DNA from: an uncultured Bacteroidia bacterium
GTDB lineage: Bacteria; Bacteroidota; Bacteroidia; JAIBAJ01
Direction of reading: 5' to 3'
NCBI GenBank assembly: GCA_965284645.1
Contig: OZ260106.1
Span: 3,979,160-4,043,159, forward strand
DNA length: 64,000 nt
In this document: positions 40,884-64,000 of the stretch, piece by piece
Layout of the letters: each line of letters begins with the position of its first letter
Position numbering within the stretch: position 1 is the first letter of the stretch
The notes under the pieces: generated by a model
Told to the model about the DNA's origin: nothing
The model's database searches: none
What the model saw: the letters and a program-made list of their open reading frames with translations, nothing else
Made by a program: the position numbers and the translations under genes

Positions 40884-41027
40884 TCGGGCAGGGATAGAAA
40901 CGGAAAGCCCACAACGGCCCGAGCGAATGCGACAGGCGTGAGGACTTGCAGTGAATAGCCCGACCATGAGCCCTTGCACTACAGGTTAATCGGAGGAGGA
41001 ATGGGTATTGGGGCGAATGGGGCACGC
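40884..41027 (+). repeat. Family-1 GC-rich repeat, copy F (forward)
   Basis: TCGGGCAGGGATAGAAACGGAAAGCCCACAACGG...TGAGGACTTGCAGTGAATAGCCCGACCATGAGCCC...GGGGCACGC. Confidence 0.65.
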
Positions 41028-41116
41028 ATAAAACAATTAAAAATTAAGGAATTAAAAATTAAAAATTGAGGGGAGTAAAATTTTAGGATAGGGTTTGGAC
41101 TTTATACATTGGCGAT

Positions 41117-44062: not shown

Positions 44063-44111
44063 AAGTAAGGATTAAAGTCTAAAAACTTGGCCTGCGAACG
44101 AAAGAAAATCC

Positions 44112-46695: not shown

Positions 46696-46698
46696 GAA

Positions 46699-47802
46699 AT
46701 GAGAGTATTTTTTTTAGCCGATTCATGTTCCGCTCATACCAAGCGATGGGCTTTAGCATTGGCTGAAAGAGGGATAGAAATAGGTTTGTATAGTTTTAGG
46801 GAACCCGATTCGCCTTGGGCTGAAAACAATCCCAACATTTCCATCTTAAGTCAAGGAACAAATACAAATTTTGCCCAGAAACTATGGACAAAAATTGGCT
46901 ATCTGTCACATTTATCCGAGGTAAAAAGGGCAATCAAAAAGTTCAAACCTGATGTGGTTCATGCCCATTATGCGAGTAGTTATGGTTTATTAGGCAGGCT
47001 TTCTGGATTTGAACCATTATTTATTAGTGCCTGGGGAAGCGATGTAATGGAATTTCCGAAAAAAAATTACTTCTTCAAGAAAATAGTCAGAAAAAACCTA
47101 ATTGCAGCGCAACGTGTATTTTGCACCAGTCAGACTTTATTGGACCATGTAAAAAATATTGCTTCCATTCAACCTGTTTATCTTCCTTGGGGTGTGGATA
47201 CATCCCTTTTTCATCCAATAACCGAAGAAAAAGAAAACAACATCATTACGATAGGTACAGTAAAATCGTTAGAATCTGTTTATCGAATAGATCTTCTTAT
47301 CCTTGCTTTTTCCATGCTTAAAAAAAGGCAAAAACTTCAAAACATTCGTTTAATGATTGTAGGTGGAGGAAGTTTGGAACATGAATTAAGAAGCCTTTCG
47401 ATGACCCTTGGCCTAAGCGATCAGGTTGAATTTACTGGCAAAATAGAACCCCAATTAATTCCAGCATATCATAGGCAGATTGACATTTTTGTAAATGTCT
47501 CCGAGCGAGAAAGCTTTGGTGTATCAGTTTTGGAAGCATCAGCTAGTGGAGTCCCCGTAATTGTAAGTCGAACTGGTGGACTAACTGAAGTTGTTTTGGA
47601 GGGGAAAACTGGTTTAATTGTGCCTGTAAACAAGATTGAACCCTTGGCTGATGCAATAGAAAAATTAATTCATTCGGAGGGAAATAGAAAAGAGATGGGA
47701 AGCAATGGAAGAAAGTGGGTAACAGAAAACTTTGATTGGAACAGCAGTGTAGGCCAAATGGTAGAAGAATATCGTAAAGCCTCGAAAAACCTGGCTAGGT
47801 GA
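46699..47802 (+). CDS. Glycosyltransferase family 4
   Basis: C-terminal GT-B motif FVNVSERESFGVSVLEASASGVPVIVSRTGG. Confidence 0.8.
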   Translation: MRVFFLADSCSAHTKRWALALAERGIEIGLYSFREPDSPWAENNPNISILSQGTNTNFAQKLWTKIGYLSHLSEVKRAIKKFKPDVVHAHYASSYGLLGRLSGFEPLFISAWGSDVMEFPKKNYFFKKIVRKNLIAAQRVFCTSQTLLDHVKNIASIQPVYLPWGVDTSLFHPITEEKENNIITIGTVKSLESVYRIDLLILAFSMLKKRQKLQNIRLMIVGGGSLEHELRSLSMTLGLSDQVEFTGKIEPQLIPAYHRQIDIFVNVSERESFGVSVLEASASGVPVIVSRTGGLTEVVLEGKTGLIVPVNKIEPLADAIEKLIHSEGNRKEMGSNGRKWVTENFDWNSSVGQMVEEYRKASKNLAR

Positions 47803-49024
47803 CAATTTTTTCAAGTTCATGCAGGAATTCATCTGCAATCATTTCACGTTCAAACTTCGCTTTAACATAGTTCAACCCATTGTTCCCTTTTTGGCTAAAC
47901 AAATCAGGGTTAGCAATCACTTCTTTGATCTTAAGGGCTAGGTCAGCATCATTCTCTGGCTCAAAATACCATCCTGCCTTTCCTTCATCAATAAATAAGG
48001 TTCTAGCCTCACCATCAACACCTAAAAATACGGGCTTTCGCATGGCTAAATTTTCGAAAATCTTCGAAGGAATTGCACCAAGGAACAGATCCAGTTTCTT
48101 GAGTGGAACAACTGTTGCATTGCTAGCGGCAACAATTTCAGGCATTTGTTTCTTTTCTACTGATCCGATAAAAAAAACTTGGGTATTTCCAAGAGAACTA
48201 TTTAAAATTTCAAGCATCTGCCTTTCAGGCCCGGTACCAACCAAAACAAACTTTACATGAGGATATTCCTTTAATCTAGCAGCTGCTTTCAGAATAACTT
48301 CTAAACCTTGAGCATGGCCTAAAATACCTGCATAAAGAAATAATAAGTCATCTGGAGAAAAACCATTTTCAGATCTCCATGTTTCTCCATCAACTTGATC
48401 TGGGTTAAAAAAAGAAGTATCAACACCGTTTCTTAGCCAAACAAAGCGTTTCTGAGGATGTCTTCGACGAATATCTTCCACAATCCCTTGGGTTTGACCA
48501 CTAATTAAGGCAGACTTCTTATAAAGGTAATTTTCTAAAAAAGTTGCCCAACTTAAAAGCGTTTTATTACTTACAATTCCGAGTTTCTCTGCACTTTCAG
48601 GCCATAAATCTGAAACATTGAAAATCAGTTTTGATCTTTTCCAAAAGCATAACCAAAGTGCTGTTAAACCCAAAAAAAGCGGTGGAGACTCACATAAAAC
48701 AAAATCAACTTTTCTTGGATTTTTTAAACCAAAAATAGCAGCGGTGAATACGAAGGAGAAGTAATTAAGTAAACGGGGGACAATACCTTTCTTTTGGGAG
48801 GCATAAATCCATGAACGAAAAACAGGAATTCCCTGAATTTCTTCCTTCATAAACCATTTACCTTGGTAGGACTCAAATATTTGACCCTTTGGGTAATTTG
48901 GCATAGCTGTCAAAACACTTATTTCCACTCCTTTTTTCTTCAATCGAATTGCTAATTCGCTCAATCGATTTTGAGGAGCACCTGTTTCAGGTGGGTAATA
49001 TTGTGTTAAAATAAGTAGTTTCAC
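47795..49024 (-). CDS. Glycosyltransferase family 4 (WbuB-like)
   Basis: N-terminal LTQYYPPETGAPQNR motif of the WbuB/GT4 clade; C-terminal E..K GT-B motif. Confidence 0.8.
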   Translation of the reverse strand: MKLLILTQYYPPETGAPQNRLSELAIRLKKKGVEISVLTAMPNYPKGQIFESYQGKWFMKEEIQGIPVFRSWIYASQKKGIVPRLLNYFSFVFTAAIFGLKNPRKVDFVLCESPPLFLGLTALWLCFWKRSKLIFNVSDLWPESAEKLGIVSNKTLLSWATFLENYLYKKSALISGQTQGIVEDIRRRHPQKRFVWLRNGVDTSFFNPDQVDGETWRSENGFSPDDLLFLYAGILGHAQGLEVILKAAARLKEYPHVKFVLVGTGPERQMLEILNSSLGNTQVFFIGSVEKKQMPEIVAASNATVVPLKKLDLFLGAIPSKIFENLAMRKPVFLGVDGEARTLFIDEGKAGWYFEPENDADLALKIKEVIANPDLFSQKGNNGLNYVKAKFEREMIADEFLHELEKIVT

Positions 49025-49081
49025 CGCTAATTTGGTCGGACAAACTTAAACCAATACGACCTTTGACCCATAGAAAAACTG

Positions 49082-50287
49082 ATGGTAATCCGTCAAAAAC
49101 TTGAAAATATACCTTCTTGGCTGATTGGAGGCATTGCCCTTTGCTTACCATTCGGCTTGCCCTTAATCAATTTTTTGGGAATTCTTCTTAGTTTATTTGG
49201 GATTTGGAAATTCATAAAAGTTAAATTTAGTTTTTCCATAACCAATCTTGGTTGGGGAAAGTCTTTACTTATAGGATTCTTTTTTATTCATGTTTTAAGT
49301 TTGTTTTGGACAGAAAACTATTCGGAAGGTCTGTTTAGGGTTCAACAAAGACTACTTTTTTTGCTTTGGCCATGGGCATTTACCTTCGCATTCGAAGGTA
49401 AAACAGACCGCTCAATTCCTTGGCTTTCGTTTATAGTTGGTTTATTTCTTGCGGTATTTTCCTGCTATGTTCATTCCTTTCTTAATAATTCAATCCATAG
49501 AGCTTGGTTTTACACAAATTTCAGCTGGTTTATGCATCCAAGCTATTTTTCATTATTTGTTGTATTTGGTAGCTTTTTGAGTCTTTTATCCCTTTTAAAC
49601 CTTTGGGAATCTTTTTTAATACCTAAATGGGCTTGGTTAATCTTGTATTTATATTTCTCCATTTCACTCTATTTTATTGAATCCAAATCGGGTCAAGTAT
49701 CTTGGGTTGTATTAAATGCAATTACATTTTTTTACTGGATTGGACAGAAATTCAGTTATCATCTCTCCATCCTACTTTTGCTTTTTTCCATTGTTTTGGG
49801 GATTTGGAAAATGGACAATCTAAAAAACAGGCTTGGTGAACGATACCAGCAGATGTTAACTGGAATACAGGTTGGTTCGTCCCAAGCTCTAGAAAGTACA
49901 GGAGGACGAATACAATCATTTGAAGCAGGGTGGTCCAGTTGTAAGGAAAATTGGTTTATTGGTGTAGGCATAGGAGATGAACAATCCACTTTACAAAAGG
50001 CATTTCATACACAGAAATTCAATTATGCATCGGTTCATAATCTAAACTGCCATAATCAATTTTTGCAAACATGGCTTGCCACTGGACTTTTGGGATTAAT
50101 CGTTTTAATTTTTCTAGTTTTAATCCCCTTTATTTTGAGATTAAACATTGTCACCTTTGGATTTTCACTTTTATTGATTTTGAATTTTATGGTCGAATCA
50201 ATGTTAGAAAGACAAATAGGTTTGTTCTTTTTCACCTTCTTTTACCTTTTACTTTTGCCAACTAAAGAAAAGCAAGGTCAAACATGA
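49082..50287 (+). CDS. O-antigen ligase / Wzy-family polytopic membrane protein
   Basis: About 10 TM segments, with a large loop containing NYASVHNLNCHNQFLQTWLATG (Wzy_C-like). Confidence 0.55.
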   Translation: MVIRQKLENIPSWLIGGIALCLPFGLPLINFLGILLSLFGIWKFIKVKFSFSITNLGWGKSLLIGFFFIHVLSLFWTENYSEGLFRVQQRLLFLLWPWAFTFAFEGKTDRSIPWLSFIVGLFLAVFSCYVHSFLNNSIHRAWFYTNFSWFMHPSYFSLFVVFGSFLSLLSLLNLWESFLIPKWAWLILYLYFSISLYFIESKSGQVSWVVLNAITFFYWIGQKFSYHLSILLLLFSIVLGIWKMDNLKNRLGERYQQMLTGIQVGSSQALESTGGRIQSFEAGWSSCKENWFIGVGIGDEQSTLQKAFHTQKFNYASVHNLNCHNQFLQTWLATGLLGLIVLIFLVLIPFILRLNIVTFGFSLLLILNFMVESMLERQIGLFFFTFFYLLLLPTKEKQGQT

Positions 50288-51498
50288 TTCCATTTTCCCC
50301 TCCACATATTACCCAGGAAGTAATTGATGAAGTTGTAGATTCGCTTAAATCAGGCTGGATAACAACCGGACCTAAAACCAAAAAACTTGAAGTCGAAGTT
50401 GCAAAGTATGTGGATAGTCCAAAGGTACTTTGTTTAAACTCTGCAACAGCGGGATTAGAATTAGCCTTGCGTTGGTTTGGAGTGGGTCAAGGTGATGAAG
50501 TTATTTTACCAGCTTACACCTATTCGGCAACGGCAAATGTAGTTATGCATTGTGGGGCTGTTCCCGTTTTGGTTGATGTGAATGCGCTCGACTTCAACAT
50601 TTCCATTGAGAATATTAGGAAAGCCATCACCTCCAAAACCAAAGTGGTTATGCCAGTTGATATAGCTGGATACCCTTGTGATTACGATGAACTATTGATT
50701 CTTGTTAAACAACAAGAAATACGAAAACAATTTGTAGCAAACCATCCTAACCAAAAAACACTTGGAAGAATTCTTGTGCTGGCTGATGCAGCTCATTCCT
50801 TTGGTGCCTATTACAAAAAAATTAAAGCATCCAAATGGGCAGATATGGCAGTTTTCTCCTTTCATGCTGTAAAAAATCTAACAACTGCTGAAGGCGGCGC
50901 ACTTTGTTTAAATCTTCCTTCGAGCTTTGATATTGAATCAGTTTATAAAGAATTAAATACAAAGGCTTTACATGGTCAAAATAAGGATGCATTAGCTAAA
51001 ACCCAAAAAGGGAACTGGGAATATGACATCGTGGAACCAGGCTTTAAATGGAACATGCCAGATGTATTAGCCGCCATTGGTTTAGCCACGCTTAGAAATT
51101 ATGATGAACAGGACTTGGTAAGACGAAAGGCTATCATGGAAAAATACAACCAAGCTTTTAGCTCATGTGCTTGGGCCGAATTACCTATTTTCCAATCCGA
51201 CAATAAAGTTTCCTCTTTTCATTTATATATGCTTCGAATTAAGGATATTACTTTGGAACAGCGAAATGCTATAATTCAAGAGATATTCAACCAAGATGTT
51301 TCGGTCAATGTACATTTTAAGCCACTGCCTTTACTTTCGGCTTATTCCAATCTATTCAAAATAGAGAATTACCCTATTTCCTACAATAATTACATTAGAG
51401 AAATCTCCTTACCTGTATATTTTGATTTAAATGACACCTTGGTAGACCAAGTAATTGAGGCGGTAAAAACCAGTGTGGCGAAGGTATTAGGTATTTAA
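50284..51498 (+). CDS. DegT/DnrJ/EryC1/StrS-family PLP-dependent sugar aminotransferase
   Basis: N-terminal FSPPHITQEVIDEVVDSLKSGWIT and the lysine region SFHAVKNL. Confidence 0.85.
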   Translation: MIPFSPPHITQEVIDEVVDSLKSGWITTGPKTKKLEVEVAKYVDSPKVLCLNSATAGLELALRWFGVGQGDEVILPAYTYSATANVVMHCGAVPVLVDVNALDFNISIENIRKAITSKTKVVMPVDIAGYPCDYDELLILVKQQEIRKQFVANHPNQKTLGRILVLADAAHSFGAYYKKIKASKWADMAVFSFHAVKNLTTAEGGALCLNLPSSFDIESVYKELNTKALHGQNKDALAKTQKGNWEYDIVEPGFKWNMPDVLAAIGLATLRNYDEQDLVRRKAIMEKYNQAFSSCAWAELPIFQSDNKVSSFHLYMLRIKDITLEQRNAIIQEIFNQDVSVNVHFKPLPLLSAYSNLFKIENYPISYNNYIREISLPVYFDLNDTLVDQVIEAVKTSVAKVLGI

Positions 51499-51499
51499 T

Positions 51500-51727
51500 T
51501 TAGGAGATAGTCAACACATCTCCTTCCCAAACCAAGCTATCACTTTCGCATGAGATATGGTGTTTTGTAACACCTTTATCAGCAAGGTAATCTCCTGTAG
51601 TAGACGTTGGAATATTAATTCTAACATTTTCAGCTAGGTGTTCAACTCCATCTATCAAGACTCTCCAGTATAGCCTGTTGTCTTTGCATTCTGTATTGTA
51701 TCTTAGCTTGATTGTATGCTTTTTCAT
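51500..51727 (-). CDS. Small hypothetical protein (75 aa)
   Basis: This ORF exactly fills the gap on the opposite strand inside the polysaccharide locus. No motif recognised. Confidence 0.3.
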   Translation of the reverse strand: MKKHTIKLRYNTECKDNRLYWRVLIDGVEHLAENVRINIPTSTTGDYLADKGVTKHHISCESDSLVWEGDVLTIS

Positions 51728-51785
51728 TGCTACAAAAATAGGATGATTATCGCAAAGAAAATCCCATTTATGGATTTAAAATCAA

Positions 51786-52118
51786 TTATTCCTTTTCAAC
51801 TACTACTGCGGTTCCATAGGCCAAAACTTCAGTCATACCGGCCATCACCTCATTGGCATCATACCGCATATTGATTATGGCATTTGCACCCGCTTGGTAT
51901 GCATGCATCAACATCAATTGCAGCGCTTCCTCTCTTGCCTTTTCACAAAGCTCTGTATAAATGGAATTTTTACCCCCAAAAATCGCCAAAATTCCTCCTG
52001 CAAAATTTCCAAAAACACTGCGAGAACGAACAGTAATACCTCTCACTAAACCAAGTTGCTTAGTGATTTTATACCCTTCCAAATGGGTACTTGTGGTTAG
52101 TAGTAAGGATGTTTGCAT
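51786..52118 (-). CDS. ybjQ: YbjQ/UPF0145 (heavy-metal-binding-like) family protein
   Basis: 110 aa with the YbjQ-typical GYKITKQLGLVRG...NAIINMRYD core. Confidence 0.75.
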   Translation of the reverse strand: MQTSLLLTTSTHLEGYKITKQLGLVRGITVRSRSVFGNFAGGILAIFGGKNSIYTELCEKAREEALQLMLMHAYQAGANAIINMRYDANEVMAGMTEVLAYGTAVVVEKE

Positions 52119-52188
52119 ACAAATTATTTTAAGGTAAAATTAGAAAAAATTATCGAATAACAAAAGGATTACCTTTCTTTGCCGAATC

Positions 52189-52779
52189 ATGGCCAAACGC
52201 CTTTTCGATATTCTTTTCTCGGTGTTAGTCCTACTTATCCTTACACCCTTCTTTCTTTTATTTTCAATTCTGATAAAATTCGGTTCCAAGGGTCCAGTTT
52301 TTTTCAAGCAAGTTAGAATAGGTAAAGGAGGAAAAGAATTCCTAATTTTTAAGTTCCGAACCATGGTATTGGATGCTGATAAGAAAGGTTTACTAACAAT
52401 TGGTGGAAGAGATCCGAGGGTTACTTCGATTGGTTATTACCTCCGAAAATTTAAGATGGATGAATTACCTCAATTTATAAATGTTCTTTTAGGAGATATG
52501 AGTATTGTAGGTCCACGACCAGAAGTAAAAAAGTTTGTTGACATGTACACCCAAGAACAACGAAAAGTGCTGTCAGTTCGTCCAGGAATAACGGATTACG
52601 CCTCCATCCTTTATAAAAACGAAAATGATGTCTTGGCCTCATATCCTGATCCAGAACAAGCCTATATTGATATTGTGATGCCACACAAATTAGGTATAAA
52701 CTTAAACTATGTCGCTCATCAATCCTTTTGGATGGATTTGAAAATTATTGGACTAACAGCCAAGGGTGTATTTTCATAA
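52189..52779 (+). CDS. Undecaprenyl-phosphate sugar phosphotransferase (small PglC/WbaP C-domain type initiating transferase)
   Basis: KRLFDILFS...PVFFKQVRIGKGGKEFLIFKFRTM...DELPQ motifs of the bacterial sugar-transferase family. Confidence 0.85.
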   Translation: MAKRLFDILFSVLVLLILTPFFLLFSILIKFGSKGPVFFKQVRIGKGGKEFLIFKFRTMVLDADKKGLLTIGGRDPRVTSIGYYLRKFKMDELPQFINVLLGDMSIVGPRPEVKKFVDMYTQEQRKVLSVRPGITDYASILYKNENDVLASYPDPEQAYIDIVMPHKLGINLNYVAHQSFWMDLKIIGLTAKGVFS

Positions 52780-52788
52780 TTTCGCAAC

Positions 52789-54687
52789 GTGATTTACAGA
52801 AGCCGTTCTTTTATGCCTCGTTGGGTAATATTTTTAACCGACGTTGCCATTGTGGTTTTGGCTTTTTTATTGGCCTACCAATTACGTTTCAATTTCCGAG
52901 TGCCATCACATGAATCATTCCGAGTAAAATCTGGATTAATCGTGCTTCTTGCTTTTAGAATTCCCCTTTTAATTCTATTTAGAACCTATGCAGGCATTAT
53001 CCTCTACACAAGTGCGGAGGATGCCATGCGCATTTTTGCCACCTTAGCAACAGGAAGTGGATTACTGGCTATTGCCAACATCTTACTTCCAAATTTCTTT
53101 CCAAACTATAACATTCCTTTGAGTGTTCTAATTATTGAGTTTTTGGTTTCAGGTTTTTTGAGTACAGGATATCGGATGGGAATAAAAACTATTTATGAAG
53201 AAATTTCTAATTTAAGAAAAGACAAAGTCAAGGTTGTGATTTTCGGAGCTGGACAAGAAGGAGTTATAGCGAAAAGAACCTTAGAACAAGACAAAAAGAA
53301 AAACAATGAGGTAGTTGCGTTTATAGATTACAAAACAGGTTTAGCAAACAAGAAAATAGAGGGGGTTCAAATTTTTGAATTAAAAAACGATTTGGATAGT
53401 TTATTAATAGAGAAAGAGGCCGAATTACTAATCATTGCGAGTCCAGGTTTACCCAACTCTCATAGGAATAAAGTGGTAGATGCCTGCCTAAAAAGTGACG
53501 TAAAGGTTTTATCCGTTCCTCCTTCCAGCAAATGGCTTAATGGAGAATTGAGTGTGAACCAGATCAGACAGGTAAAGATTGAAGAATTACTTGAAAGGGA
53601 ACCAATTAACCTTGATAAGGCTACCATAAGCCAACAGGTTCAGGGGAAGAAAATATTGATTACTGGAGCGGCAGGTTCAATTGGAAGTGAAATTGTAAGG
53701 CAACTCACCCAATTCAATCCATCAAAACTCTATTTATTAGACCAAGCTGAATCACCATTGTATGAGTTAGAACAAGAACTAAAACAAACATATGGATTTC
53801 AGAATTTTGAGGTTATTATTGGAGATGTTAGAAATGTAGAGCGCTTAGAGAATGTCTTTAATACATTTCGGCCACAGATTATTTATCATGCAGCAGCTTA
53901 TAAACATGTTCCTTTGATGGAGGATAATCCTAGTGAATCAATATTAACGAATGTCCTTGGCACAAAAATCACAGCAGATTTGGCCGTAAAGTACCAAACA
54001 GAGAAATTTGTTTTTATTAGCACTGACAAAGCCGTAAATCCTACTAATGTTATGGGGGCTAGTAAAAGGATAGCTGAAATGTATGTGCAGAGCAAAAACA
54101 ATCAGTTAAAACTTTTGGGTTCAGAACACACTCGATTTGTAACTACACGATTTGGAAATGTTCTTGGGTCAAATGGTAGTGTCATTCCCGTTTTTAAAAA
54201 GCAAATTGAAAATGGAGGTCCAATTACAGTAACACATCCCGAAATCACCCGATTTTTTATGACCATACCTGAGGCCTGTCAATTGGTTTTAGAAGCAGGC
54301 GCCTATGGAAACGGGGGTGAAATTTTCGTTTTTGACATGGGGGAACCGGTTAGAATTGCTGATCTAGCGCAGAAAATGATAAAATTGAGCGGTTTAGAAC
54401 CAGGGAAAGATATTCAGATAAAATACAATGGATTACGACCTGGTGAAAAGTTATTCGAAGAGCTTTTAAACAACCAAGAAAACACACTGCCTACCCATCA
54501 TTCCAAGATAATGGTAGCGAAAGTTAGGGAATATACTTTTGCGGAAGTAAATAAGGACATATTGGAACTGGTTGAATTATTTCATACTCAAAACAACAAC
54601 CTGATTGTTTCCAAAATGAAGGAAATGGTACCTGAATATATTAGTAATAATTCTATTTATGAAATATTGGATGGGAAACCGAAGTAG
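52789..54687 (+). CDS. Membrane-anchored nucleotide-sugar 4,6-dehydratase/epimerase (PglF/CapD/WbpM family)
   Basis: N-terminal 4 TM. NAD-binding motif GAAGSIGSE and active-site motif YKH. GTG start. Confidence 0.85.
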   Translation: MIYRSRSFMPRWVIFLTDVAIVVLAFLLAYQLRFNFRVPSHESFRVKSGLIVLLAFRIPLLILFRTYAGIILYTSAEDAMRIFATLATGSGLLAIANILLPNFFPNYNIPLSVLIIEFLVSGFLSTGYRMGIKTIYEEISNLRKDKVKVVIFGAGQEGVIAKRTLEQDKKKNNEVVAFIDYKTGLANKKIEGVQIFELKNDLDSLLIEKEAELLIIASPGLPNSHRNKVVDACLKSDVKVLSVPPSSKWLNGELSVNQIRQVKIEELLEREPINLDKATISQQVQGKKILITGAAGSIGSEIVRQLTQFNPSKLYLLDQAESPLYELEQELKQTYGFQNFEVIIGDVRNVERLENVFNTFRPQIIYHAAAYKHVPLMEDNPSESILTNVLGTKITADLAVKYQTEKFVFISTDKAVNPTNVMGASKRIAEMYVQSKNNQLKLLGSEHTRFVTTRFGNVLGSNGSVIPVFKKQIENGGPITVTHPEITRFFMTIPEACQLVLEAGAYGNGGEIFVFDMGEPVRIADLAQKMIKLSGLEPGKDIQIKYNGLRPGEKLFEELLNNQENTLPTHHSKIMVAKVREYTFAEVNKDILELVELFHTQNNNLIVSKMKEMVPEYISNNSIYEILDGKPK

Positions 54688-54688
54688 T

Positions 54689-55693
54689 TTAATTGGTGTC
54701 CAATATTTTCAACAATTCATCCACTTTCGGGGTAATAATAATTTCTGAACGTCTATTTTTCTGACGAGCTTCTTGACTATTTCCTTTGTCCAAAGGCACA
54801 TATTCGCTTCTTCCTGCAGAGGCAACTTGGGCAGGCTTTAACTTGCTATTTGCCAATAGAATCTTCGTAATTGCCGTTGCTCTCATTACGCTTAAATCCC
54901 AGTTATCCTTAACTTGGTTACTGCCATTGTACGGAACATTATCTGTATGGCCTTCCACCATGATACTGATATCAGTTTGCGACTCCAAAACCTTTGCTAG
55001 TTTTTTTAAAGCCTCTTGTCCTTTTGGATCAACCGCCCAGCTACCACTTTGAAACAATAGCTTTTCTTCTACAGAAACATAAACCTTTCCATTTCGTTGT
55101 TCAACTGTCAATCCATTATTCTTAAATCCAAGCAAAGCATCGGCAATTCTTTGCTTCAAGGCCTTTACGGCTGAATCTTTTCGGTAAATTATAGACTCCA
55201 ACTCCTTGGTTCTTTTTTCTCTTTCATCTAAATCCTTTTGGGCCTTTTTAAGGTTTGATTCTTGTTTATCCAATTCTACAGTCATTCTGCGCAACATTTC
55301 TTCCTGACCCACCAAGGCGTCTTGGGATTTTTGGAATAGTTCTGCCAATCGATTCTTGTCGGCAACAGCACCAGTTTCTAATAATTTAAACCTATCAGAT
55401 AAAATATCATGCTCACTACCGAGGGCTTGGTATTTAGCATCCAAAGCTCTTATCTGACTGCCTTGATTAGCAGTATCATTGGCCAATTGTACCAATTCCC
55501 TATTTATCCGATCAATACTTGCTTGTCGTTCATTGGAAAGCACTGTCATACTATCTAGATTTTTCTTGGTAAATGCCAATTCCTCTTCACATGCTTTTTG
55601 TTTGGCTTCTGTTTCTTTGTATTGCCTTGAAGAGACACACGATCCGACCATAATTGGTAAAAGTCCAAATGCTAAAATTCCAAATTTATTCAT
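54689..55693 (-). CDS. OmpA-family lipoprotein with an N-terminal coiled coil
   Basis: Lipobox MVGSCVSS, long heptad-like region, and a C-terminal OmpA domain (GHTDNVPY...NRRSEI). Confidence 0.75.
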   Translation of the reverse strand: MNKFGILAFGLLPIMVGSCVSSRQYKETEAKQKACEEELAFTKKNLDSMTVLSNERQASIDRINRELVQLANDTANQGSQIRALDAKYQALGSEHDILSDRFKLLETGAVADKNRLAELFQKSQDALVGQEEMLRRMTVELDKQESNLKKAQKDLDEREKRTKELESIIYRKDSAVKALKQRIADALLGFKNNGLTVEQRNGKVYVSVEEKLLFQSGSWAVDPKGQEALKKLAKVLESQTDISIMVEGHTDNVPYNGSNQVKDNWDLSVMRATAITKILLANSKLKPAQVASAGRSEYVPLDKGNSQEARQKNRRSEIIITPKVDELLKILDTN

Positions 55694-55796
55694 GCTTACT
55701 AAATATCAAGGTAAAAGTACATAGGCATATATCCTACAACGGACATTCAACAGGAACTTTTAAACATGAAAAAGAGGGAAACTGAAAAACAAAAAA

Positions 55797-55826
55797 AAAT
55801 CCTCCGAAAAACTATTCGGAGGATTT
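55797..55826 (-). terminator. Rho-independent terminator downstream of the collagen-like gene
   Basis: Hairpin atcctccg / cggaggat with a 10-nt loop, followed on the minus strand by a U9 tract (A9 at 55791-55799 on the plus strand). Confidence 0.5.
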
Positions 55827-55847
55827 CAAGATAGATATCAAAAATTC

Positions 55848-57227
55848 TTATTTTACAGATGCTTCTGATTTTGCATTTTTAAGAATTTCAACTTCTGCCT
55901 TCAAATCTTTAAGCATTTTACTCAAGTCATCTTGTGCAACAATTTTAGACTGTAAAGATTCAATTTGTTTTTGTTGTTCTTTTACTGCATTAACTAAGAT
56001 ATAAACCAAGGCTGAACTATCATACATCAGCAAATCCTCGGCTTTGGCATCAGTTTCTTTAAGTTTTTTGGTCACAGTTTCAACCATATAAGGAGCTACT
56101 GGTTTTACTTCTTGGGCAATAACCCCGATATAATCCTTTCCATTAGCCTGATATCCACCAAGTCCGTTGTATTTAAAACTTACTGGATTAATTTGCAGCA
56201 GAGTGGCCAATCCATCATTAAATGGTTTAATATCCTTTTTAAGACGACGGTCAGAAAATGTTTGCCAGCTGCCACCTCCTAATTTGGAAGCATCCCCATT
56301 TACAGAAAATAATTGGTCTGGAGAAAGGGTACCGATACCCACACGGGCATCAGAATTTATAGCCATAATTGGTTGAAAACCTCCATTTCCAACATCAGTT
56401 GCTCCGAAAATCACACGATCTCCTGTTCCATTAGGAGAAACACCATAGTTGTCTCCAAAATTTATGCGTAATTCGCTTTTGTCATCGCCTGCATTGTAAC
56501 GAGCAATCCACATATCATCTGAATTATTGCTACCAAAAGTTGGACCAGTTCCTCCGCCATCAAAGCGCAAAGCCCTTCCCAATTGAGGAAAAGTTGCTGG
56601 GGCAGGAGCTATGGTTTCTCCAATTATTAAATCACCAAAAGCAACTTGCAATTTAGCGCCTGGGGTAGTTGTAGAGATACCAACATTGGTGCCATCATCG
56701 GAGATAATGGAATTACACATATCGGTTGGAGAGGTAAATTTTGTTACAAAATTGGTGGTAGCTGTTTGACAAATAGTTCCGGGACCAGTAGCTCCTGTAG
56801 CACCTGTAGCACCTACAGCACCGGCAGGGCCTTGTGCACCAGCGGGGCCTTGCGCACCAGCAGCACCGGCAACACCGGCAGGACCTTGTGCACCAGCAGC
56901 ACCTGTTGGACCAGTTGGACCAGTTGAACCGACAGCACCTGAAATATCTCCGCAAATACTTACCCAAACTGGAGCCGTAGTTGTACCTCTATTGTAAAAG
57001 AAGCAACTTGAATCAGTGTCAAAAACTAATAAACTATGGTATGGGTTGTTAAGCCCCAATCTTTGAAGTGCATTAAGTCTTGGGACAAGCATGCCCTTAG
57101 TTGAAGAGGAAACATCCAAAACAGCAGAAGGATCAGGCGTAGTTGTTCCAATACCAACATTATTCTGGGCTAGAACACTTAAGGAAAGGAGCAAAAAGGA
57201 AAAAATGGATAGACCTAATTTTCTCAT
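55848..57227 (-). CDS. Secreted collagen-like (Gly-X-Y) repeat protein with a C-terminal peptidase-S74 intramolecular-chaperone (tail-fibre) domain
   Basis: About 26 consecutive GXY triplets (GPTGPTGAAGAQGPAG...). The C-terminal SDRRLKKDIKPF...LLQINPVSFKYNG matches the start of the endosialidase chaperone / S74 autoprocessing domain. Confidence 0.75.
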   Translation of the reverse strand: MRKLGLSIFSFLLLSLSVLAQNNVGIGTTTPDPSAVLDVSSSTKGMLVPRLNALQRLGLNNPYHSLLVFDTDSSCFFYNRGTTTAPVWVSICGDISGAVGSTGPTGPTGAAGAQGPAGVAGAAGAQGPAGAQGPAGAVGATGATGATGPGTICQTATTNFVTKFTSPTDMCNSIISDDGTNVGISTTTPGAKLQVAFGDLIIGETIAPAPATFPQLGRALRFDGGGTGPTFGSNNSDDMWIARYNAGDDKSELRINFGDNYGVSPNGTGDRVIFGATDVGNGGFQPIMAINSDARVGIGTLSPDQLFSVNGDASKLGGGSWQTFSDRRLKKDIKPFNDGLATLLQINPVSFKYNGLGGYQANGKDYIGVIAQEVKPVAPYMVETVTKKLKETDAKAEDLLMYDSSALVYILVNAVKEQQKQIESLQSKIVAQDDLSKMLKDLKAEVEILKNAKSEASVK

Positions 57228-57449
57228 TATAGAAATTTTCGGCTAAGTAAGTGTTTTTAATGAAATAAAGGACTGAAAAAATCAAGATAATTAAAAAATA
57301 TTAATCAAATTTTTTCTTTTTTCTTCAAAAATGAAATTCCCCCTGTTAATTTTAAAAACCTATACCATTCGTTAGCAGACTACTAAAACTAATTAACACC
57401 AATTAACGGTACCCTTAGAAAATAAATGTATTTCAAACAAAAATACGTT

Positions 57450-57457
57450 TACCTTTG
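57450..57457 (+). promoter_or_regulatory. Bacteroidetes -7 box (TAccTTTG) 14 nt upstream of the tRNA
   Basis: tacctttg at 57450-57457. Confidence 0.45.
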
Positions 57458-57471
57458 CAGTCCAAATTATT

Positions 57472-57545
<74 letters not shown>

Positions 57546-57555
57546 ACAGAATTAA

Positions 57556-57585
57556 AGCGCAAACTTCCATTTGCGCTTTTTTTAT
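57556..57585 (+). terminator. Rho-independent terminator after the tRNA
   Basis: Stem agcgcaaa / tttgcgct (8 bp), a 6-nt loop, then TTTTTTTA. Confidence 0.55.
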
Positions 57586-57613
57586 TTCCATCTTTACCTT
57601 TTTCAATTACACT

Positions 57614-58486
57614 ATGCATAAGTCAGGATATGTCAACATTATAGGCAAACCAAATGCAGGGAAATCGACCTTAATGAATGCCTTGGTTGGGGAAAAACTT
57701 TCTGTAATAAACGCCAAAGTACAAACTACTCGCCACCGGATTCTAGGAATCTTAAATCAGGAAGAATACCAAATTATTTTTTCTGATACGCCTGGCACAG
57801 TCGATCCAAAGTACAAACTACATGAACGTATGATGGATTATGTAAATGATTCATTTAAGGATGCAGATATCCTTATTCTTTTACATGATGCCGAAGACCC
57901 AAGACCTGATTTAGCAATAGTAGAAAAATTAAGCAAGGTAACAGTTCCAGTACTATTGGTTTTGAATAAGGTTGATATTTCCAAGCAAGAGAATATTCCA
58001 GCTATTAAACAAAGGTGGGAGGAATTATTGCCAGGAAAAGATATGCTATTCATTTCAGCCCTCCACGAATATAATACAGATTTACTTCTTCAGAAGTTAG
58101 TGGATTTACTGCCAGAATCACCTGCCTATTATCCCAAGGACCAACTAACAGATAAAACTGAACGCTTTTTTGTTTCAGAAATTATTCGCGGTAAAATGCT
58201 AAGTCTTTATGCCAAAGAGATTCCCTATTCCGCCGACATCCAAATTACTTCCTTTAAAGAAGAGCCTTCAATAACGAAAATTTCAGCCTTAATTATTACA
58301 GAAAGAGAAAGCCAAAAAGCAATCATTTTGGGCCATAAAGGAAACAAAATCAAACAATTGGGCACAGACTCAAGAAAAGAAATTGAAGAATTCATTCAAA
58401 AAAAGGTATTTCTGGAATTGGTAGTTAAAGTGGATAAGGATTGGCGAAACAATGATTTGTTTCTTGATCGAAGTGGATATGTTTAA
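57614..58486 (+). CDS. era: GTPase Era
   Basis: G1 motif GKPNAGKST, G3 motif DTPG, G4 motif NKVD, and a C-terminal KH domain. Confidence 0.9.
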   Translation: MHKSGYVNIIGKPNAGKSTLMNALVGEKLSVINAKVQTTRHRILGILNQEEYQIIFSDTPGTVDPKYKLHERMMDYVNDSFKDADILILLHDAEDPRPDLAIVEKLSKVTVPVLLVLNKVDISKQENIPAIKQRWEELLPGKDMLFISALHEYNTDLLLQKLVDLLPESPAYYPKDQLTDKTERFFVSEIIRGKMLSLYAKEIPYSADIQITSFKEEPSITKISALIITERESQKAIILGHKGNKIKQLGTDSRKEIEEFIQKKVFLELVVKVDKDWRNNDLFLDRSGYV

Positions 58487-58585
58487 GGCCTACATTTTTT
58501 CAATAGAAATTAACTTTTCCTTATTGGTCTGAATCAGAACAATTTTTGAAACATTTTTTCCAAATTTGGATAAAAGCGAAATCCA

Positions 58586-59398
58586 ATGAAAAACACCACT
58601 ATTAGACCAATTACCTTATTTTTTTTCCTTTTTCTTTCAACTTTATATGGTTTTTCTCAAGAAATCATCAAAGAGAAATGGCCTAATGGTAGGCTTAAAT
58701 CAACTGGAACCCTTTTAAATGGCAAAGAAGATGGCCTTTGGACATATTACTACGAAAACGGCCAAAAAGAGCGAGAAGGAACCTTCCTTGAAGGTAAAAG
58801 GCATGACAAATGGTCCGAATGGTACGAAAATGGGAAATTATGGACAGAGCAATACTTCAAAATGGATTTACCTGAAGGATACGCGGCTGAATATGACATG
58901 AATGGTCAAAAAGTGGAAGAGGGAACCTTTAAGGAAGGAAAACCAGCTGGACTATTTAATTCATGGTTTAATACTGGACAGCCCAAAAGCAGTGGGGAAA
59001 AGTATGGAGAAACATTGGAAGGCCATTGGATTTATTACCACGAAAATGGAAACAAGGACTCAGAAGGAGATTTTAAACAAGGGAAAAGAGCAGGTCTCTG
59101 GATAGAATATTTTGAAAATGGAAAATTAAAATCCCAAGGCTATTACATCAATGATATAAAAAATGGCAAATGGACTTTTTGGTTCGATAATGGAAGAGAA
59201 AAAGAAAAAGGAGAGTTCAGAAATGGATTTAAATATGGCAAATGGATTGAATGGTATGACAATGGACAAACCAAATCAATGGGCTCATATTTAGGAAATG
59301 AAAAAGATGGAAGCTGGCAATATTGGGATGATAAAGGTAATTTAAAAAGACAAGAATCATGGTTAGACAGGCAACTTATTGACAATAAAGATTTTTGA
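58586..59398 (+). CDS. MORN-repeat-variant protein (often annotated as YwqK-family antitoxin)
   Basis: Signal peptide plus about 8 repeats of G.W..YYENGQK..EG.F..GK..G.W. Confidence 0.7.
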   Translation: MKNTTIRPITLFFFLFLSTLYGFSQEIIKEKWPNGRLKSTGTLLNGKEDGLWTYYYENGQKEREGTFLEGKRHDKWSEWYENGKLWTEQYFKMDLPEGYAAEYDMNGQKVEEGTFKEGKPAGLFNSWFNTGQPKSSGEKYGETLEGHWIYYHENGNKDSEGDFKQGKRAGLWIEYFENGKLKSQGYYINDIKNGKWTFWFDNGREKEKGEFRNGFKYGKWIEWYDNGQTKSMGSYLGNEKDGSWQYWDDKGNLKRQESWLDRQLIDNKDF

Positions 59399-59409
59399 TT
59401 GTTCATTAC

Positions 59410-62400
59410 ATGTTAAAAAACTCTTTATTTTCACCCCCAAATCCAAAGCTAATCGCCTTGAAAAAAGTTTTACAACTATCGATTTTTCTACTTTCTATCC
59501 TATTTAGTAGTAATATTTTAGCCTCCCACATTGTTGGAGGGGAAATAAACTACACCTACCTTGGAGGAAATCAATATCAGATTGCTATTACCCTCTATAG
59601 AGATTGCAATAGCACCACTGATTTTGATGACCCAGCCGCTGTTGGAATTTTTGATGGAAATGGAAATTTGGTACAAACCATTGATATTAATCTTGGTGCT
59701 GTTAACCAGATTAATGCTTCGATTAATAATCCTTGTATTACTCCACCTTCTAGTGTTTGTACTGAGGTAACTACCTACACTACAACAGTAACCCTTCCGC
59801 CAAACGGAAATGGATATCAAATCGTTTATCAAAGGTGTTGTAGAAATGCTGTAATAGATAACATCCAAGATCCGAGCAATACTGGGGCTACCTATGTTGC
59901 TGTAATTCCTGGAGTTGCTCCTCTAAATAATAATAGCAACCCTACCTTTAACAACCTTCCTCCCTTGTTTATTTGTGCTGGAACACCATTTACCTTTAAC
60001 CATGCAGCTACCGATTCAGATGGAGATTCTTTAGTTTATTCTTTAACCACCCCATTTGAAGGTGCCGATGCAGTTAATCCTCAGCCCAACACACCTTCAA
60101 CACCTCCTTATACAAATATTACTTGGCAAGCGCCTTATTCCCAAAACAATATGTTTGGGGGCGTACCATTAACCATTGATGCCCAAACAGGCGTTATTAC
60201 CTGTACTCCAAATACCCAAGGAACCTTTGTTTATGCCGTTCAGGTTGCTGAATACCGTAATGGTGTCCTTATTGGATTTACAAAAAGGGAATACCAATTA
60301 ACTGTGACCAATTGTAATAATCCTACTGTAGCTGGATTTGGTTTAACAAATGCTTCTGGTGGAGTTGGCTATTCAACCTGTTCCTCTAATGTTGTTTTTA
60401 ACAATACTAGCTCAAATGCAACATCCTATTCTTGGGACTTTGGAGATCCTACAACCACATCAGATGTTTCAACCAGCCAAAATCCAACCTATACCTATCC
60501 GGCTCAAGGAACCTACAATGTAACACTTATTGCTATTTCTTCCAATTGTAGCGATACTATTAACATACCTGTAACCATCACTGGAAATATTTCAGTTTCA
60601 GCCGGTGCAGATTTAACGGCTTGTCCAGGAAATTCAGTGCAATTAAATGCAACTGGCGCTACAACCTATTCTTGGTCACCAACTACAGGTATATCGAATC
60701 CAAATATTGCTAACCCTACTGCTTCTCCTGCAACAACAACTTCCTATGTTGTTACAGGAACTGATGCTAGTGGATGTACTGGCACCGACACCGTTGTGGT
60801 TACCATAGGAACCATAAATGTATCTGGAGGTTCGGACCAAACCGTTTGTAATGGCAGCTGTGTTCAACTTACAGGGTCAGGCGCTACAACTTATGCTTGG
60901 AGTCCAAGTTCTGGTTTAACTGGAGCCAATACAGCCACTCCCACTGCTTGTCCGACGGTTACCACCACTTATGTTGTTACCGGAACAAGCAATGGTTGCA
61001 CTGGAACCGACACGGTAACTGTTTTTGTAACTACACCACCCAATATTAATGCAGGAAACGATACAACGATTTGCCCGGGTGGAACTGCCCAACTCTTTGC
61101 AAACGGTGGGCTTTCCTACAATTGGAGTCCTTCCACAGGGCTGTCGAACCCCAACATCGCTAACCCAACGGCTTCACCAACTACCACAACAACCTATACT
61201 GTAACGGTTACAGCTCCATCGGGAAACGTTGTTGTAAACGGAGATTTTTCTAGTGGAAATACGGGCTTTTCAAGTGGCTATGTTAATAATAGTAACCTTC
61301 AACCAGAAGGAAGATACTTTATTACCAACGATGCATCTAACAATCATCCTAATTTCGTAGGGGTAGACCATACAACAGGCTCAGGCAACTTTATGGCCGT
61401 AAATGGTTCAGGAACTCCCAATAACGATGTTTGGTGCCAAACTGTAAATGTTACTCCTAATACTGTTTATGCCTTCAGCACTTGGGTTAGTACACTTGCT
61501 CCTGGAAATACTGCAGCTTTGCAATTTAGTATTAATGGTGTTCAGTTGGGTAATATTTTTAATGCTCCCTCTTCCTTAAACACTTGGAACCAATTCTTCC
61601 AAACCTGGAATTCGGGCACGAATACAACAGCTACCATTTGTATCGTAAACCAAAATACAAGCTTAGGTGGAAATGATTTTGGATTAGATGATATTACCTT
61701 CTCACCAACTTGTACGGCTACGGCCCAAGTTACCGTAACAGTTGGATCTGTTGGAGCAATCAACGCAGGTCCAGACCAACAAGTTTGTGCTGGAGCCAGT
61801 GTGCAGCTGAATGCTACCGGCGGACAGAACTATAGCTGGAGCCCTGCTACCGATCTTTCGTCTACCACGATTGCCAACCCCATTTCTACACCGGCCAATA
61901 CCATTACCTATGTGGTTAGCGGAACCGACACCTTGGGTTGTTCGGCCTCCGATACGGTTCAGGTTACAGTAAATCCCCTGCCTACGGTTTCTGCCGGTCA
62001 GGACCAAAATATTTGCCTTGGGGATTCAGCCCAGCTTGTTGCTGCAGGCGCTGCAACCTATGTTTGGACACCTGCTACCGGATTATCGTCTGCTACCATA
62101 GCCAATCCTGTGTTTACACCAAGCGCAGCCGGTTCGGTGGTGTTCACCGTTACTGGAACAGACCAAAACGGTTGTACCGATAGCGACAACATCACGGTTT
62201 TAGTTGGTACTCCTCCTACGGCCGTTGTTTCTGGGCCTGTAAGTATCTGTCCGGGCGGTTCTACCCAACTGCTTGCCTCGGGCGGTGTTGGTTACCAATG
62301 GAGCCCAACTACCGGACTTAATGTTCCAAACATTCCAAATCCACTTGCTTCACCTAGCCAAACAACGACGTATACCGTAACCGTTTCTGATATCGCAGGC

Positions 62401-64000
62401 TGTACCGATTCGGCTAGTGTGGTTGTAACAGTGCTTGTTGCTCCTACAGTTAGTGCGGGTCCCGACACAGGTTTCTGTACCGGTGGTTCGCTTCAGCTCG
62501 TTGCAACCGGAGCTAGCAGCTATGCTTGGAGCCCTGCCAACGGACTTTCCAACCCGGCCATTGCCAATCCTGTCGCTTCACCGAACGTTTCAACGGTTTA
62601 TGTGGTAACCGGTACCGCTCCGAACGGTTGTACCGACAGCGATACCATCAGCGTGGACGTTTGGCCAAACCCGAATGCCGATGCCGGTCCTGATCAAACT
62701 GTTTGTATCGGCTCGTTCGTGCAGTTACAGGGCAGCGGAGGACAGACCTATCAATGGAGCCCTGCTGCACCGCTCAACAACGATACCATTTACAACCCTG
62801 TTGGCGTTCTTACTAGTACAACCACCTTTACCCTTATCGTTGGCAACCAATACGGATGTACCGACCAAGACCAGGTAACCATTACCATGCTTCCTGCTCC
62901 GGCCTACAGTGTGGGAACCGATACCTTGATTTGTCCGGGTGGTACCGCCCAACTTTTTGCTACTGCCGTTGGTGCTATTTCCTATGTTTGGAACCCCATC
63001 ACCGGGCTTTCGAACCCTTTCATCGCCAACCCTACCGCCACTCCGCCTTTTACTCAGTTCTATACCGTTAGCATCACCACCTCAACCTGTACTATCAACG
63101 ACAGCGTGACCGTGGTGGTTGACCAGCCCGACTTTGCCAATGCCGGAAGCGATACAGCCTATTGCTTCGGACAGTCGGTACAGCTCGGTGCTACCGGTGG
63201 TGTTTCCTATGAATGGTTCCCTGCCACCGGACTGAACAACCCCAATATCCAGAACCCGATTACCAGTATCGACACCTCCATCGTGTACGGGGTAATCACC
63301 ACAACGGCCATTGGTTGTAATGACACCGACTTTGTCAACATCGTGGTGAATCCCTTGCCAAATGTGGACGCAGGACCCGTTTCCAGTCCAATTTGTGCTG
63401 GAGCTACCGTACTGTTGACCGCCACGGGTGCCAATACCTATCTCTGGAGTCCGGCCGCAGGGTTGTCCAATCCAACTTCCGATATCACGACAGCCGGGCC
63501 TTTGAATGCAAGCCAAACCTTTACCGTAACAGGTACCGACACCTTGGGATGCAGCAACACCGATACCATACAGCTTAACCTGGTACCGAACCCCACAGCC
63601 GATGCCGGTCCCGACACCACCATCTGTTCAGGAGCCAGTGTGCAGCTTAATGCCTCTGGTGGAACCTCCTATGTATGGAACCCAGCCGGTGGACTTTCAT
63701 CGCCCTTTGTGTCCAATCCGATGGCATTCCCCGTAACCTCCACCGAATATTCAGTTACGGTAACCGACAACAACGGATGTTCCGATACCGATACTATTGA
63801 AGTAAACGTGTTCAGTCTGCAAATTGAAGGGGATACCACCATCTGCCAAGGCGATACCGTGGAATTTGTTTTGCCACAGGGAACAAGCTTCGTTTGGGAT
63901 CCAACCATTGGTGTGGGAGGCACCTCAACCGTGGCTCTGCTTTATCCCAATACTTCTACAACCTATACGGTAACCGCTACCAATACCTTGGCCGGTTGTA
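59410..64000 (+). CDS. Giant secreted adhesin, partial (>1530 aa, runs off the window end). It has an N-terminal module shared with the 10222 protein, followed by tandem Ig-like repeats of about 80 aa.
   Basis: Hand-traced frame from the ATG at 59410 (MLKNSLF... signal). The frame was checked at 10 points to 64000 with no shift. At least 19 repeats of the form C.GG...L.A.GA..Y.WSP..GLSNP.IANP.ASP..TTTY.VT.TD..GC.D.D...V. Confidence 0.85.
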   Translation, partial: MLKNSLFSPPNPKLIALKKVLQLSIFLLSILFSSNILASHIVGGEINYTYLGGNQYQIAITLYRDCNSTTDFDDPAAVGIFDGNGNLVQTIDINLGAVNQINASINNPCITPPSSVCTEVTTYTTTVTLPPNGNGYQIVYQRCCRNAVIDNIQDPSNTGATYVAVIPGVAPLNNNSNPTFNNLPPLFICAGTPFTFNHAATDSDGDSLVYSLTTPFEGADAVNPQPNTPSTPPYTNITWQAPYSQNNMFGGVPLTIDAQTGVITCTPNTQGTFVYAVQVAEYRNGVLIGFTKREYQLTVTNCNNPTVAGFGLTNASGGVGYSTCSSNVVFNNTSSNATSYSWDFGDPTTTSDVSTSQNPTYTYPAQGTYNVTLIAISSNCSDTINIPVTITGNISVSAGADLTACPGNSVQLNATGATTYSWSPTTGISNPNIANPTASPATTTSYVVTGTDASGCTGTDTVVVTIGTINVSGGSDQTVCNGSCVQLTGSGATTYAWSPSSGLTGANTATPTACPTVTTTYVVTGTSNGCTGTDTVTVFVTTPPNINAGNDTTICPGGTAQLFANGGLSYNWSPSTGLSNPNIANPTASPTTTTTYTVTVTAPSGNVVVNGDFSSGNTGFSSGYVNNSNLQPEGRYFITNDASNNHPNFVGVDHTTGSGNFMAVNGSGTPNNDVWCQTVNVTPNTVYAFSTWVSTLAPGNTAALQFSINGVQLGNIFNAPSSLNTWNQFFQTWNSGTNTTATICIVNQNTSLGGNDFGLDDITFSPTCTATAQVTVTVGSVGAINAGPDQQVCAGASVQLNATGGQNYSWSPATDLSSTTIANPISTPANTITYVVSGTDTLGCSASDTVQVTVNPLPTVSAGQDQNICLGDSAQLVAAGAATYVWTPATGLSSATIANPVFTPSAAGSVVFTVTGTDQNGCTDSDNITVLVGTPPTAVVSGPVSICPGGSTQLLASGGVGYQWSPTTGLNVPNIPNPLASPSQTTTYTVTVSDIAGCTDSASVVVTVLVAPTVSAGPDTGFCTGGSLQLVATGASSYAWSPANGLSNPAIANPVASPNVSTVYVVTGTAPNGCTDSDTISVDVWPNPNADAGPDQTVCIGSFVQLQGSGGQTYQWSPAAPLNNDTIYNPVGVLTSTTTFTLIVGNQYGCTDQDQVTITMLPAPAYSVGTDTLICPGGTAQLFATAVGAISYVWNPITGLSNPFIANPTATPPFTQFYTVSITTSTCTINDSVTVVVDQPDFANAGSDTAYCFGQSVQLGATGGVSYEWFPATGLNNPNIQNPITSIDTSIVYGVITTTAIGCNDTDFVNIVVNPLPNVDAGPVSSPICAGATVLLTATGANTYLWSPAAGLSNPTSDITTAGPLNASQTFTVTGTDTLGCSNTDTIQLNLVPNPTADAGPDTTICSGASVQLNASGGTSYVWNPAGGLSSPFVSNPMAFPVTSTEYSVTVTDNNGCSDTDTIEVNVFSLQIEGDTTICQGDTVEFVLPQGTSFVWDPTIGVGGTSTVALLYPNTSTTYTVTATNTLAGC

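Follow-up and report, generated by a model that had tools for sequence, protein, structure and literature searches.

Why should the base composition of a single gene change abruptly while its reading frame runs on unbroken? The question is raised by gene A, the open reading frame (ORF) under study, which starts near the right-hand end of a stretch of 64,000 nucleotides from an uncultured Bacteroidia bacterium (contig OZ260106.1). This whole stretch is called the window below, and it ends before the 3' end of the ORF. In one line, the gene is:

59410..64000, plus strand: gene A, first 1530 codons of a type IX secretion system (T9SS)-type surface adhesin, cut by the window end

The distal repeats of this gene, here called the block, are much richer in guanine plus cytosine (GC) at third codon positions (GC3) than the part of the gene before them. 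On the evidence given below, it is likely that gene A is a mosaic adhesin that arose by recurrent ectopic gene conversion between two paralogues, gene A itself and a second adhesin gene, gene B.

Starting with the ATG at 59410, frame 0 stays open as far as the window reaches, over 1530 codons, in agreement with the continuous frame reported in the initial annotation of this DNA. The protein is composed, in order, of an N-terminal head, a PKD domain, three immunoglobulin (Ig)-like repeats, a domain resembling carbohydrate-binding modules (CBM-like) and ten more Ig-like repeats. A hydrophobic leader, visible in the translation as the stretch LQLSIFLLSILFSSNILA, and the unassigned head take up residues 1 to ~330, with the PKD domain next; a Pfam search of the head gave no match. 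The 13 repeats, which were delimited with a repeat hidden Markov model, are of Ig_7/PKD-like type and lie at residues 396-622 (three) and at 784-1530 and beyond (ten). PKD_4, Ig_7 and K319L-like_PKD exceeded the Pfam cut-offs, which identifies an Ig-like/PKD repeat stalk. The mid domain (~170 aa) matched Pfam CBM_4_9 below threshold (E 0.017), and phmmer found nothing for it in PDB. Its alignment-based AlphaFold model (confidence score pLDDT 86) had Foldseek matches to CBM16, CBM22 and CBM4 at E ~1e-6; the model from the single sequence (pLDDT 45) was unusable. A CHU_C type B sorting domain is found at the C-terminus of homologues, including gene B (PF13585, E = 5e-22) and the A-type orthologue P0002. 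By homology, gene A is predicted to end in the same kind of type IX sorting domain past the window. Its end should lie ~185 codons beyond the window if it follows gene B, giving a protein of ~1715 aa, for which the earlier label 'giant' is overstated.

The compositional step is real and far beyond chance. Total GC in 300-nt windows is 0.31-0.48 at 59.3-61.7 kb and 0.50-0.57 from 61.7 kb on; the whole window has a GC content of 40.4%, and among its 1-kb bins the last two reach 0.526 and 0.527 and all others are at most 0.45. For GC3, a single maximum-likelihood change point was placed at codon 795 (support interval of two log-likelihood units, nt 61756-61819), with 0.275 before and 0.507 after it. 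The log-likelihood ratio (LLR) of this point was 43.7, as compared with a maximum of 8.1 in 500 permutations. The sharp shift inside the adhesin ORF that had been noticed by eye was thus confirmed, and the uniform GC3 that had been named as the observation speaking against it was not seen, the change-point analysis showing a step. The shift takes place within amino acids: the GC-ending fraction rises from 0.37-0.48 to 0.74 for Thr, from 0.00-0.11 to 0.33 for Val, from 0.21-0.28 to 0.51 for Ala, from ~0.15 to 0.51 for Ile and from 0.00-0.24 to 0.55 for Gln. It is also present in Ser, Pro, Leu, Asn and Asp, and absent in Gly, Cys and Tyr. The description of the distal repeats as written in GC-rich codons therefore holds for ACC, GCC, GTG and CCG, all of which rise, but not for GGC, which is not enriched (12 before, 11 after). 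It should be noted that GC at second codon positions (GC2) is 0.5-0.66 in both repeat blocks of gene A, so amino-acid composition accounts for part of the total GC excess. Given the codon usage of the window and the amino acids of the block, a GC3 of 0.32-0.42 would be expected there, versus 0.50 observed. The other genes of the window range from 0.24 to 0.49, and the 5' part of gene A (0.28) lies below the window mean of 0.37 and resembles its neighbours (0.24-0.33).

Could the step simply reflect an intrinsic cause, either because repeat type, amino-acid composition or expression favours GC-ending codons or because repeats have been homogenised within the gene? The high content of Thr, Ala, Gly and Pro in the repeats does raise GC at the first codon position and GC2, and the block of gene B is likewise slightly GC3-richer than the head of gene B. 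On the other hand, the upstream repeats A1-A3 are of the same type and have a GC3 of only 0.21-0.38, a distant orthologue of gene A is flat (LLR 1.5), and the difference between repeat and non-repeat GC3 within a protein is -0.003 +/- 0.033 in 45 related loci as against +0.23 here. Nor is the same gradient common to all paralogous adhesins, an outcome that had been put forward as grounds for doubt: the repeats of these 45 loci are flat, as is the second T9SS adhesin of the window (33821-38119, minus strand; ten PKD domains and CHU_C), an internal control with a GC3 of ~0.30 throughout. The 13 repeats of gene A are only 38-61% identical to each other in DNA, and the 'strong repeat homogenisation' considered at first thus fails within the gene, although it applies between genes A and B. 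In view of these data, an intrinsic cause is extremely improbable.

The source of the block became apparent from its homologues. Among 185,579 species genomes, the closest sequence was found to be L001, a contig of a Sediminibacterium metagenome-assembled genome (MAG). It carries gene B (2086 aa), whose head, consisting of DUF7948 and beta-propeller repeats, is unlike that of gene A, and whose downstream module is common to both genes. The GC3 of gene B is ~0.46 throughout, without a strong change point (LLR 5.8). Compared with gene B, gene A is divided into the following segments (pS and pN, proportions of synonymous and non-synonymous sites that differ):

before 60832: no DNA similarity to gene B

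59410..60831, plus strand: gene-A-specific head (hydrophobic leader, unassigned domain, PKD, repeat A1), GC3 ~0.25, without DNA homology to gene B (blastn, alignment)

60832..61235, plus strand: repeats A2-A3, probably exchanged at an earlier time; divergence from gene B ~5% in DNA and entirely synonymous (pS 0.20, pN 0)

61236..61551, plus strand: apparently unexchanged core of the CBM-like domain, ~30% DNA divergence from gene B, synonymous sites saturated

61552..61660, plus strand: short near-identical patch in divergent surroundings, 1 mismatch in 109 nt versus gene B

61661..61759, plus strand: divergent island comprising the end of the CBM-like domain and the linker, ~28% mismatches and pS 0.65 versus gene B, stopping at the breakpoint

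61760..64000, plus strand: Ig-like repeats B1-B10, forming the GC3-rich block (GC3 0.50), identity to gene B 98.84%, 3' end past the window

The block differs from gene B at 26 of 2241 nt (20 synonymous and 6 non-synonymous differences), with none in its first 251 nt. Its start, 61760, is that of repeat B1 to the codon, and the cluster of A/B differences just upstream comes to an end at ~61758-61759, within the support interval of the GC3 change point. The compositional change point and the similarity breakpoint to gene B therefore coincide, and the proposal of a mosaic adhesin made by recombination was borne out. Differences amount to 14.7% in 60835-61759 and to 1.16% from 61760 on (Fisher p = 5e-50), and upstream of the block, over 60832-61759, identity varies between 70 and 96%. 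By segment, pS between A and B is 0.20 (aa 477-608), 0.79 (609-700), 0.28 (701-750), 0.65 (751-784) and 0.035 (785-1530), so that one single duplication, which would give one value, does not account for the data. The pS series, the mismatch map and the Fisher test all point to abrupt changes in divergence between the copies and to a mosaic of tracts, whose edges fall at domain starts (60832 is close to the start of repeat A2 and 61760 is that of B1). The tract at 60832..61235 is closer to gene B (pS 0.20) than to the A orthologue of the sister-species contig L090 (pS 0.42); the head upstream of it is conserved in L090 and in a second such contig, L092, at 81-95%. Composition follows the same pattern. 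In unexchanged segments GC3 is 0.24-0.27 in gene A and 0.45-0.53 in gene B (0.27 versus 0.45 for 61236..61551), whereas the block has 0.50-0.51 in both. The linker in the divergent island reads GSVGA in gene A and NNNGN in gene B. Along the block, pS climbs (0.017, 0.032, 0.052); this trend together with the difference-free start is only marginally non-random by a rough estimate (probability ~0.045), and nested tracts are not claimed.

Do the two copies reside in one genome? By exact look-up, five window proteins (Era, DegT, OmpA-family, mannosidase and RibBA) were assigned to a 4,430,998-bp contig at NCBI. A contig of this length was also reported for P0122 (743 aa) and P0001 (1333 aa), the two parts of gene B, and for exact copies of the four proteins tested from just downstream of gene B in L001 (MazG, the PorV/PorP-family protein, a PALP enzyme and PurA). 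P0001 differs from gene B of L001 at one internal residue in 1333 and from the window copy at 5 residues in the block; the latter difference suggests that two distinct copies exist. Genes A and B are thus very probably paralogues of one genome, sharing a chromosome as judged from the look-ups, and we infer that L001 is a valid proxy for the resident gene B. Gene B of the 4.43 Mb genome is interrupted by an apparent frameshift beside a GGG/TTTT run (L001 ~nt 9925), giving the 743-aa and 1333-aa pieces. This may stem from a long-read error or reflect a genuine pseudogene; in the MAG, the gene is intact.

These results bear directly on the initial idea that a repeat block was acquired horizontally from a higher-GC relative. 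The breakpoint is sharp, as such an import would leave it, and the GC3 of the block exceeds both the maximum of the other window genes (0.49) and the codon-usage expectation. However, the sole near-identical sequence that was found comes from the same species and, it appears, from the same 4.43 Mb genome, and its GC3 of 0.46 is in the native range, if in the upper part of it. In GC-rich genomes (GC3 0.64-0.76), homologues reach only 25-47% identity, and the block is positionally orthologous to blocks of lower GC3 in relatives (0.37 in L093, 0.32 in P0002 and 0.38 in P0020). The closest relatives were therefore not in genomes matching the segment, as opposed to the host, in composition. A higher-GC donor is accordingly improbable, and this part of the initial proposal was abandoned.

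A chimeric join of the 5' part of A to the 3' part of B at their shared repeats, that is, an assembly artefact, deserves consideration for several reasons. Genes A and B have ~3 kb of similar sequence in common, the frameshift of gene B in the 4.43 Mb assembly hints at long-read errors, and contigs assembled from short reads of relatives stop within the block or at its edge: L090 ends at the window equivalent of 62201, L093 starts at that of 61765, the first residue of the block, and the ENA/JGI contig Mmg-Ps7w ends at codon 862, within the shared block. Such breaks are, however, to be expected if the block is duplicated in the genomes of the relatives too. Moreover, the window block is not the copy of B, being 5 residues off P0001 of the same assembly and 26 nt off L001, and the junction is spanned in frame, with an A-type linker, by the independent short-read contig L090, with Mmg-Ps7w reaching codon 862. 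We therefore consider an artefact very improbable.

Relatives also provided information on timing. The sister-species contig L090, which comes from JGI, shows synteny with the window over 47608-62201 (88.7% identity). Behind an A-type head and linker it continues, without a frame break, into the block, of which it includes the first 147 codons, and the best-supported GC3 change along it falls at codon 796 (from 0.27 to 0.42). The junction and the compositional contrast thus predate the species split. Over the same 145 aligned codons (785-931), pS is 0.29 between the blocks of L090 and the window and 0.000 between the window's gene A and gene B, so that paralogues are closer than orthologues here; the A heads of the two species have a pS of 0.44. 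The contrast between 0.29 and 0.000 indicates that the window block was homogenised with gene B after the split from the L090 species. In a more distant lineage, the module of the A-type proteins (P0123/P0002) is 72-80% identical to that of the B-type protein (P0020), as compared with 59-77% to the orthologues here, a pattern characteristic of concerted evolution.

Allelic import is a further alternative: a closely related strain would have supplied the block from its A or B gene through transformation and homologous recombination. Related strains are found together in metagenomes, and the 26 differences between A and B imply either that some time has passed since the last exchange or that the donor was a gene other than the resident B. 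However, a search of 5.8 billion proteins and two DNA collections yielded no third allele with a closer match than B, and A and B cluster by lineage over long time-scales, as within-genome exchange predicts. Allelic import is thus unlikely, though it deserves more weight than the alternatives discussed so far.

According to the gene conversion model, homologous recombination between the stalk modules of A and B would have repeatedly overwritten parts of A with B-type sequence. The latest and largest tract would run from nt 61760, the start of distal repeat 1, past the window end, with gene B as its probable donor, and because A's own GC3 is ~0.27 and that of B ~0.45-0.5, the tract edge would appear as a sharp compositional step. 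We infer, for the direction from composition, that transfer went from B to A and that conversion was intragenomic rather than an import of a closely related strain's allele. The distribution of tracts suggests that the heads and the core of the CBM-like domain stayed gene-specific, while the stalk and probably the sorting end were interchangeable, the binding parts being kept apart. Several observations weigh against this model. The A and B blocks are 1.2% apart and not identical, and another strain's allele brought in by ordinary homologous recombination would look alike. The block GC3 of 0.50 is somewhat higher than that of the gene B head (0.43-0.49) and of the core genes beside B (0.33-0.46), which is unexplained. 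The tract ends somewhere past the window on its 3' side, the DNA of the resident gene B is represented by L001 from a near-identical MAG, and the shared chromosome rests on look-ups reporting matches on contigs of the identical size of 4,430,998 bp. Finally, the sister species already has the step, and composition differed across the junction before the latest event; the latest tract alone hence does not 'create' the step.

There is also a small chance that recurrent A/B conversion is GC-biased, in which case these genes would offer a natural test case of GC-biased gene conversion in Bacteroidota, or, in a related scenario, that the frameshifted resident gene B acts as a silent donor rewriting the stalk and sorting end of gene A. 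When the 26 differences were polarised with L093 as the outgroup, gene A had 4 changes from G/C to A/T and 4 in the opposite direction, gene B had 3 and 6, respectively, and 9 were unpolarised, which is uninformative on AT-decay or GC-biased fixation. Two other systems were considered and rejected. Silent-cassette antigenic variation of the pilE/pilS kind did not fit, as only one other copy with at least 90% identity was found and gene B is full-length and intact in the MAG. A diversity-generating retroelement did not fit either: the 26 differences are scattered over 2.2 kb without being specific to adenine (a reverse transcriptase was not searched for).

Non-allelic exchange between paralogous adhesin genes, leading to chimeras with sharp breakpoints, has reportedly been described for babA/babB of Helicobacter pylori (gene conversion) and for the FLO genes of yeast (ectopic recombination). 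Gene A resembles them as a chimeric gene that would have arisen by non-allelic recombination between adhesin paralogues. In the bab and FLO systems, the binding region is exchanged and phenotypic or antigenic variation results on short time-scales. In gene A, by contrast, it is mainly the repeat stalk that appears to have been exchanged, the head and most of the CBM-like domain are gene-specific, and rapid switching is without evidence. A closer parallel by phylum is offered by rgpA, kgp and hagA of Porphyromonas gingivalis, which have near-identical or identical adhesin-domain DNA in common, at which short-read assemblies break, and undergo modular rearrangement (PMC5266723). Both cases involve paralogous type IX-secreted surface proteins of Bacteroidota with different N-terminal functional parts and shared adhesin-domain DNA. 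They differ in that the P. gingivalis genes have cleaved-adhesin/DUF2436 modules and a type A C-terminal domain (CTD) in a host-associated pathogen, whereas the present genes have an Ig_7/PKD-like stalk and, by homology, a type B (CHU_C) CTD in an environmental member of the Chitinophagaceae. The passages of PMC5266723 consulted mention no compositional step at rgpA, kgp or hagA.

With regard to secretion, T9SS substrates with a type B CTD, such as the SprB-like proteins of Flavobacterium johnsoniae, are large, repeat-rich proteins of the cell surface with a CHU_C/TIGR04131-type C-terminal signal, often accompanied by a PorP/SprF-like shuttle gene (PMC12618676). Similarly, CHU_C is found in gene B and in the A-type orthologue, and a PorV/PorP-family outer-membrane protein is encoded two genes downstream of gene B (L001 14821-16071), which may be a candidate for the cognate type B shuttle. 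The C-terminus of gene A lies past the window; the likeness to SprB is one of type, without a motility role being implied.

The A/B locus is a new example of a known process and not a new kind of system. Its wider relevance is that conversion between paralogues can leave a sharp step in composition within a gene. Such a step need not mean foreign DNA, which calls for caution in composition-based calls of horizontal gene transfer. It further points to long-term concerted evolution of the stalk, and presumably of the anchor, in two type IX adhesins with distinct heads, and the shared block would explain why short-read assemblies break in gene A of these organisms.

Three long antisense ORFs were reported in the region of the block:

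61702..62007, minus strand: antisense ORF, 101 aa, by-product of low stop-codon density in GC-rich DNA

63082..63516, minus strand: antisense ORF, 144 aa, by-product

63669..63923, minus strand: antisense ORF, 84 aa, by-product

Their initial interpretation as by-products of the shift is reasonable. Stop codons per 100 codons in non-coding frames number 4.3-8.8 upstream and 1.6-7.4 in the block, a drop in most frames, though not all. Antisense genes were rejected, as the ORFs are not conserved in the distant homologue L093, where each antisense frame contains stops that interrupt them.

In the vicinity of gene B, L001 1-6600 forms a ~6 kb low-GC island upstream of the gene (GC3 0.18-0.31), with genes for a DUF2130 protein and a DprA-like protein and unassigned genes. 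The DUF2130 and DprA-like proteins were found on the MAG contig only and not on the 4.43 Mb genome, so the island is probably variable. A non-coding element of ~190 nt upstream of gene B (L001 6865-7056) is shared with window 40884-41075 at 76% identity. It has a G/C-rich core followed by a AATTAAAAATTAA-type tail, and no Rfam family matched it at the gathering threshold.

Upstream of gene A, window 55848-57227 (minus strand) encodes a collagen-repeat protein with a Peptidase_S74 (endosialidase chaperone) domain, similar to phage tail fibres. The gene is conserved in the same place in L090 and L092, and L087 encodes a similar protein ~7 kb ahead of its B-type gene. Codon positions 1 and 2 account for the local GC peak of the window gene (0.51), the GC3 being 0.24. 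A polysaccharide/O-antigen-type cluster is located at window 44000-59400 (Wzy, DegT, glycosyltransferases and Polysacc_synt_2, with Era, a MORN-repeat protein and tRNA-Met at 57471-57544). The GC3 of this region is ~0.30, as compared with ~0.39 for the initial 33 kb of the window, and gene A in its 5' part resembles this locally AT-rich neighbourhood.

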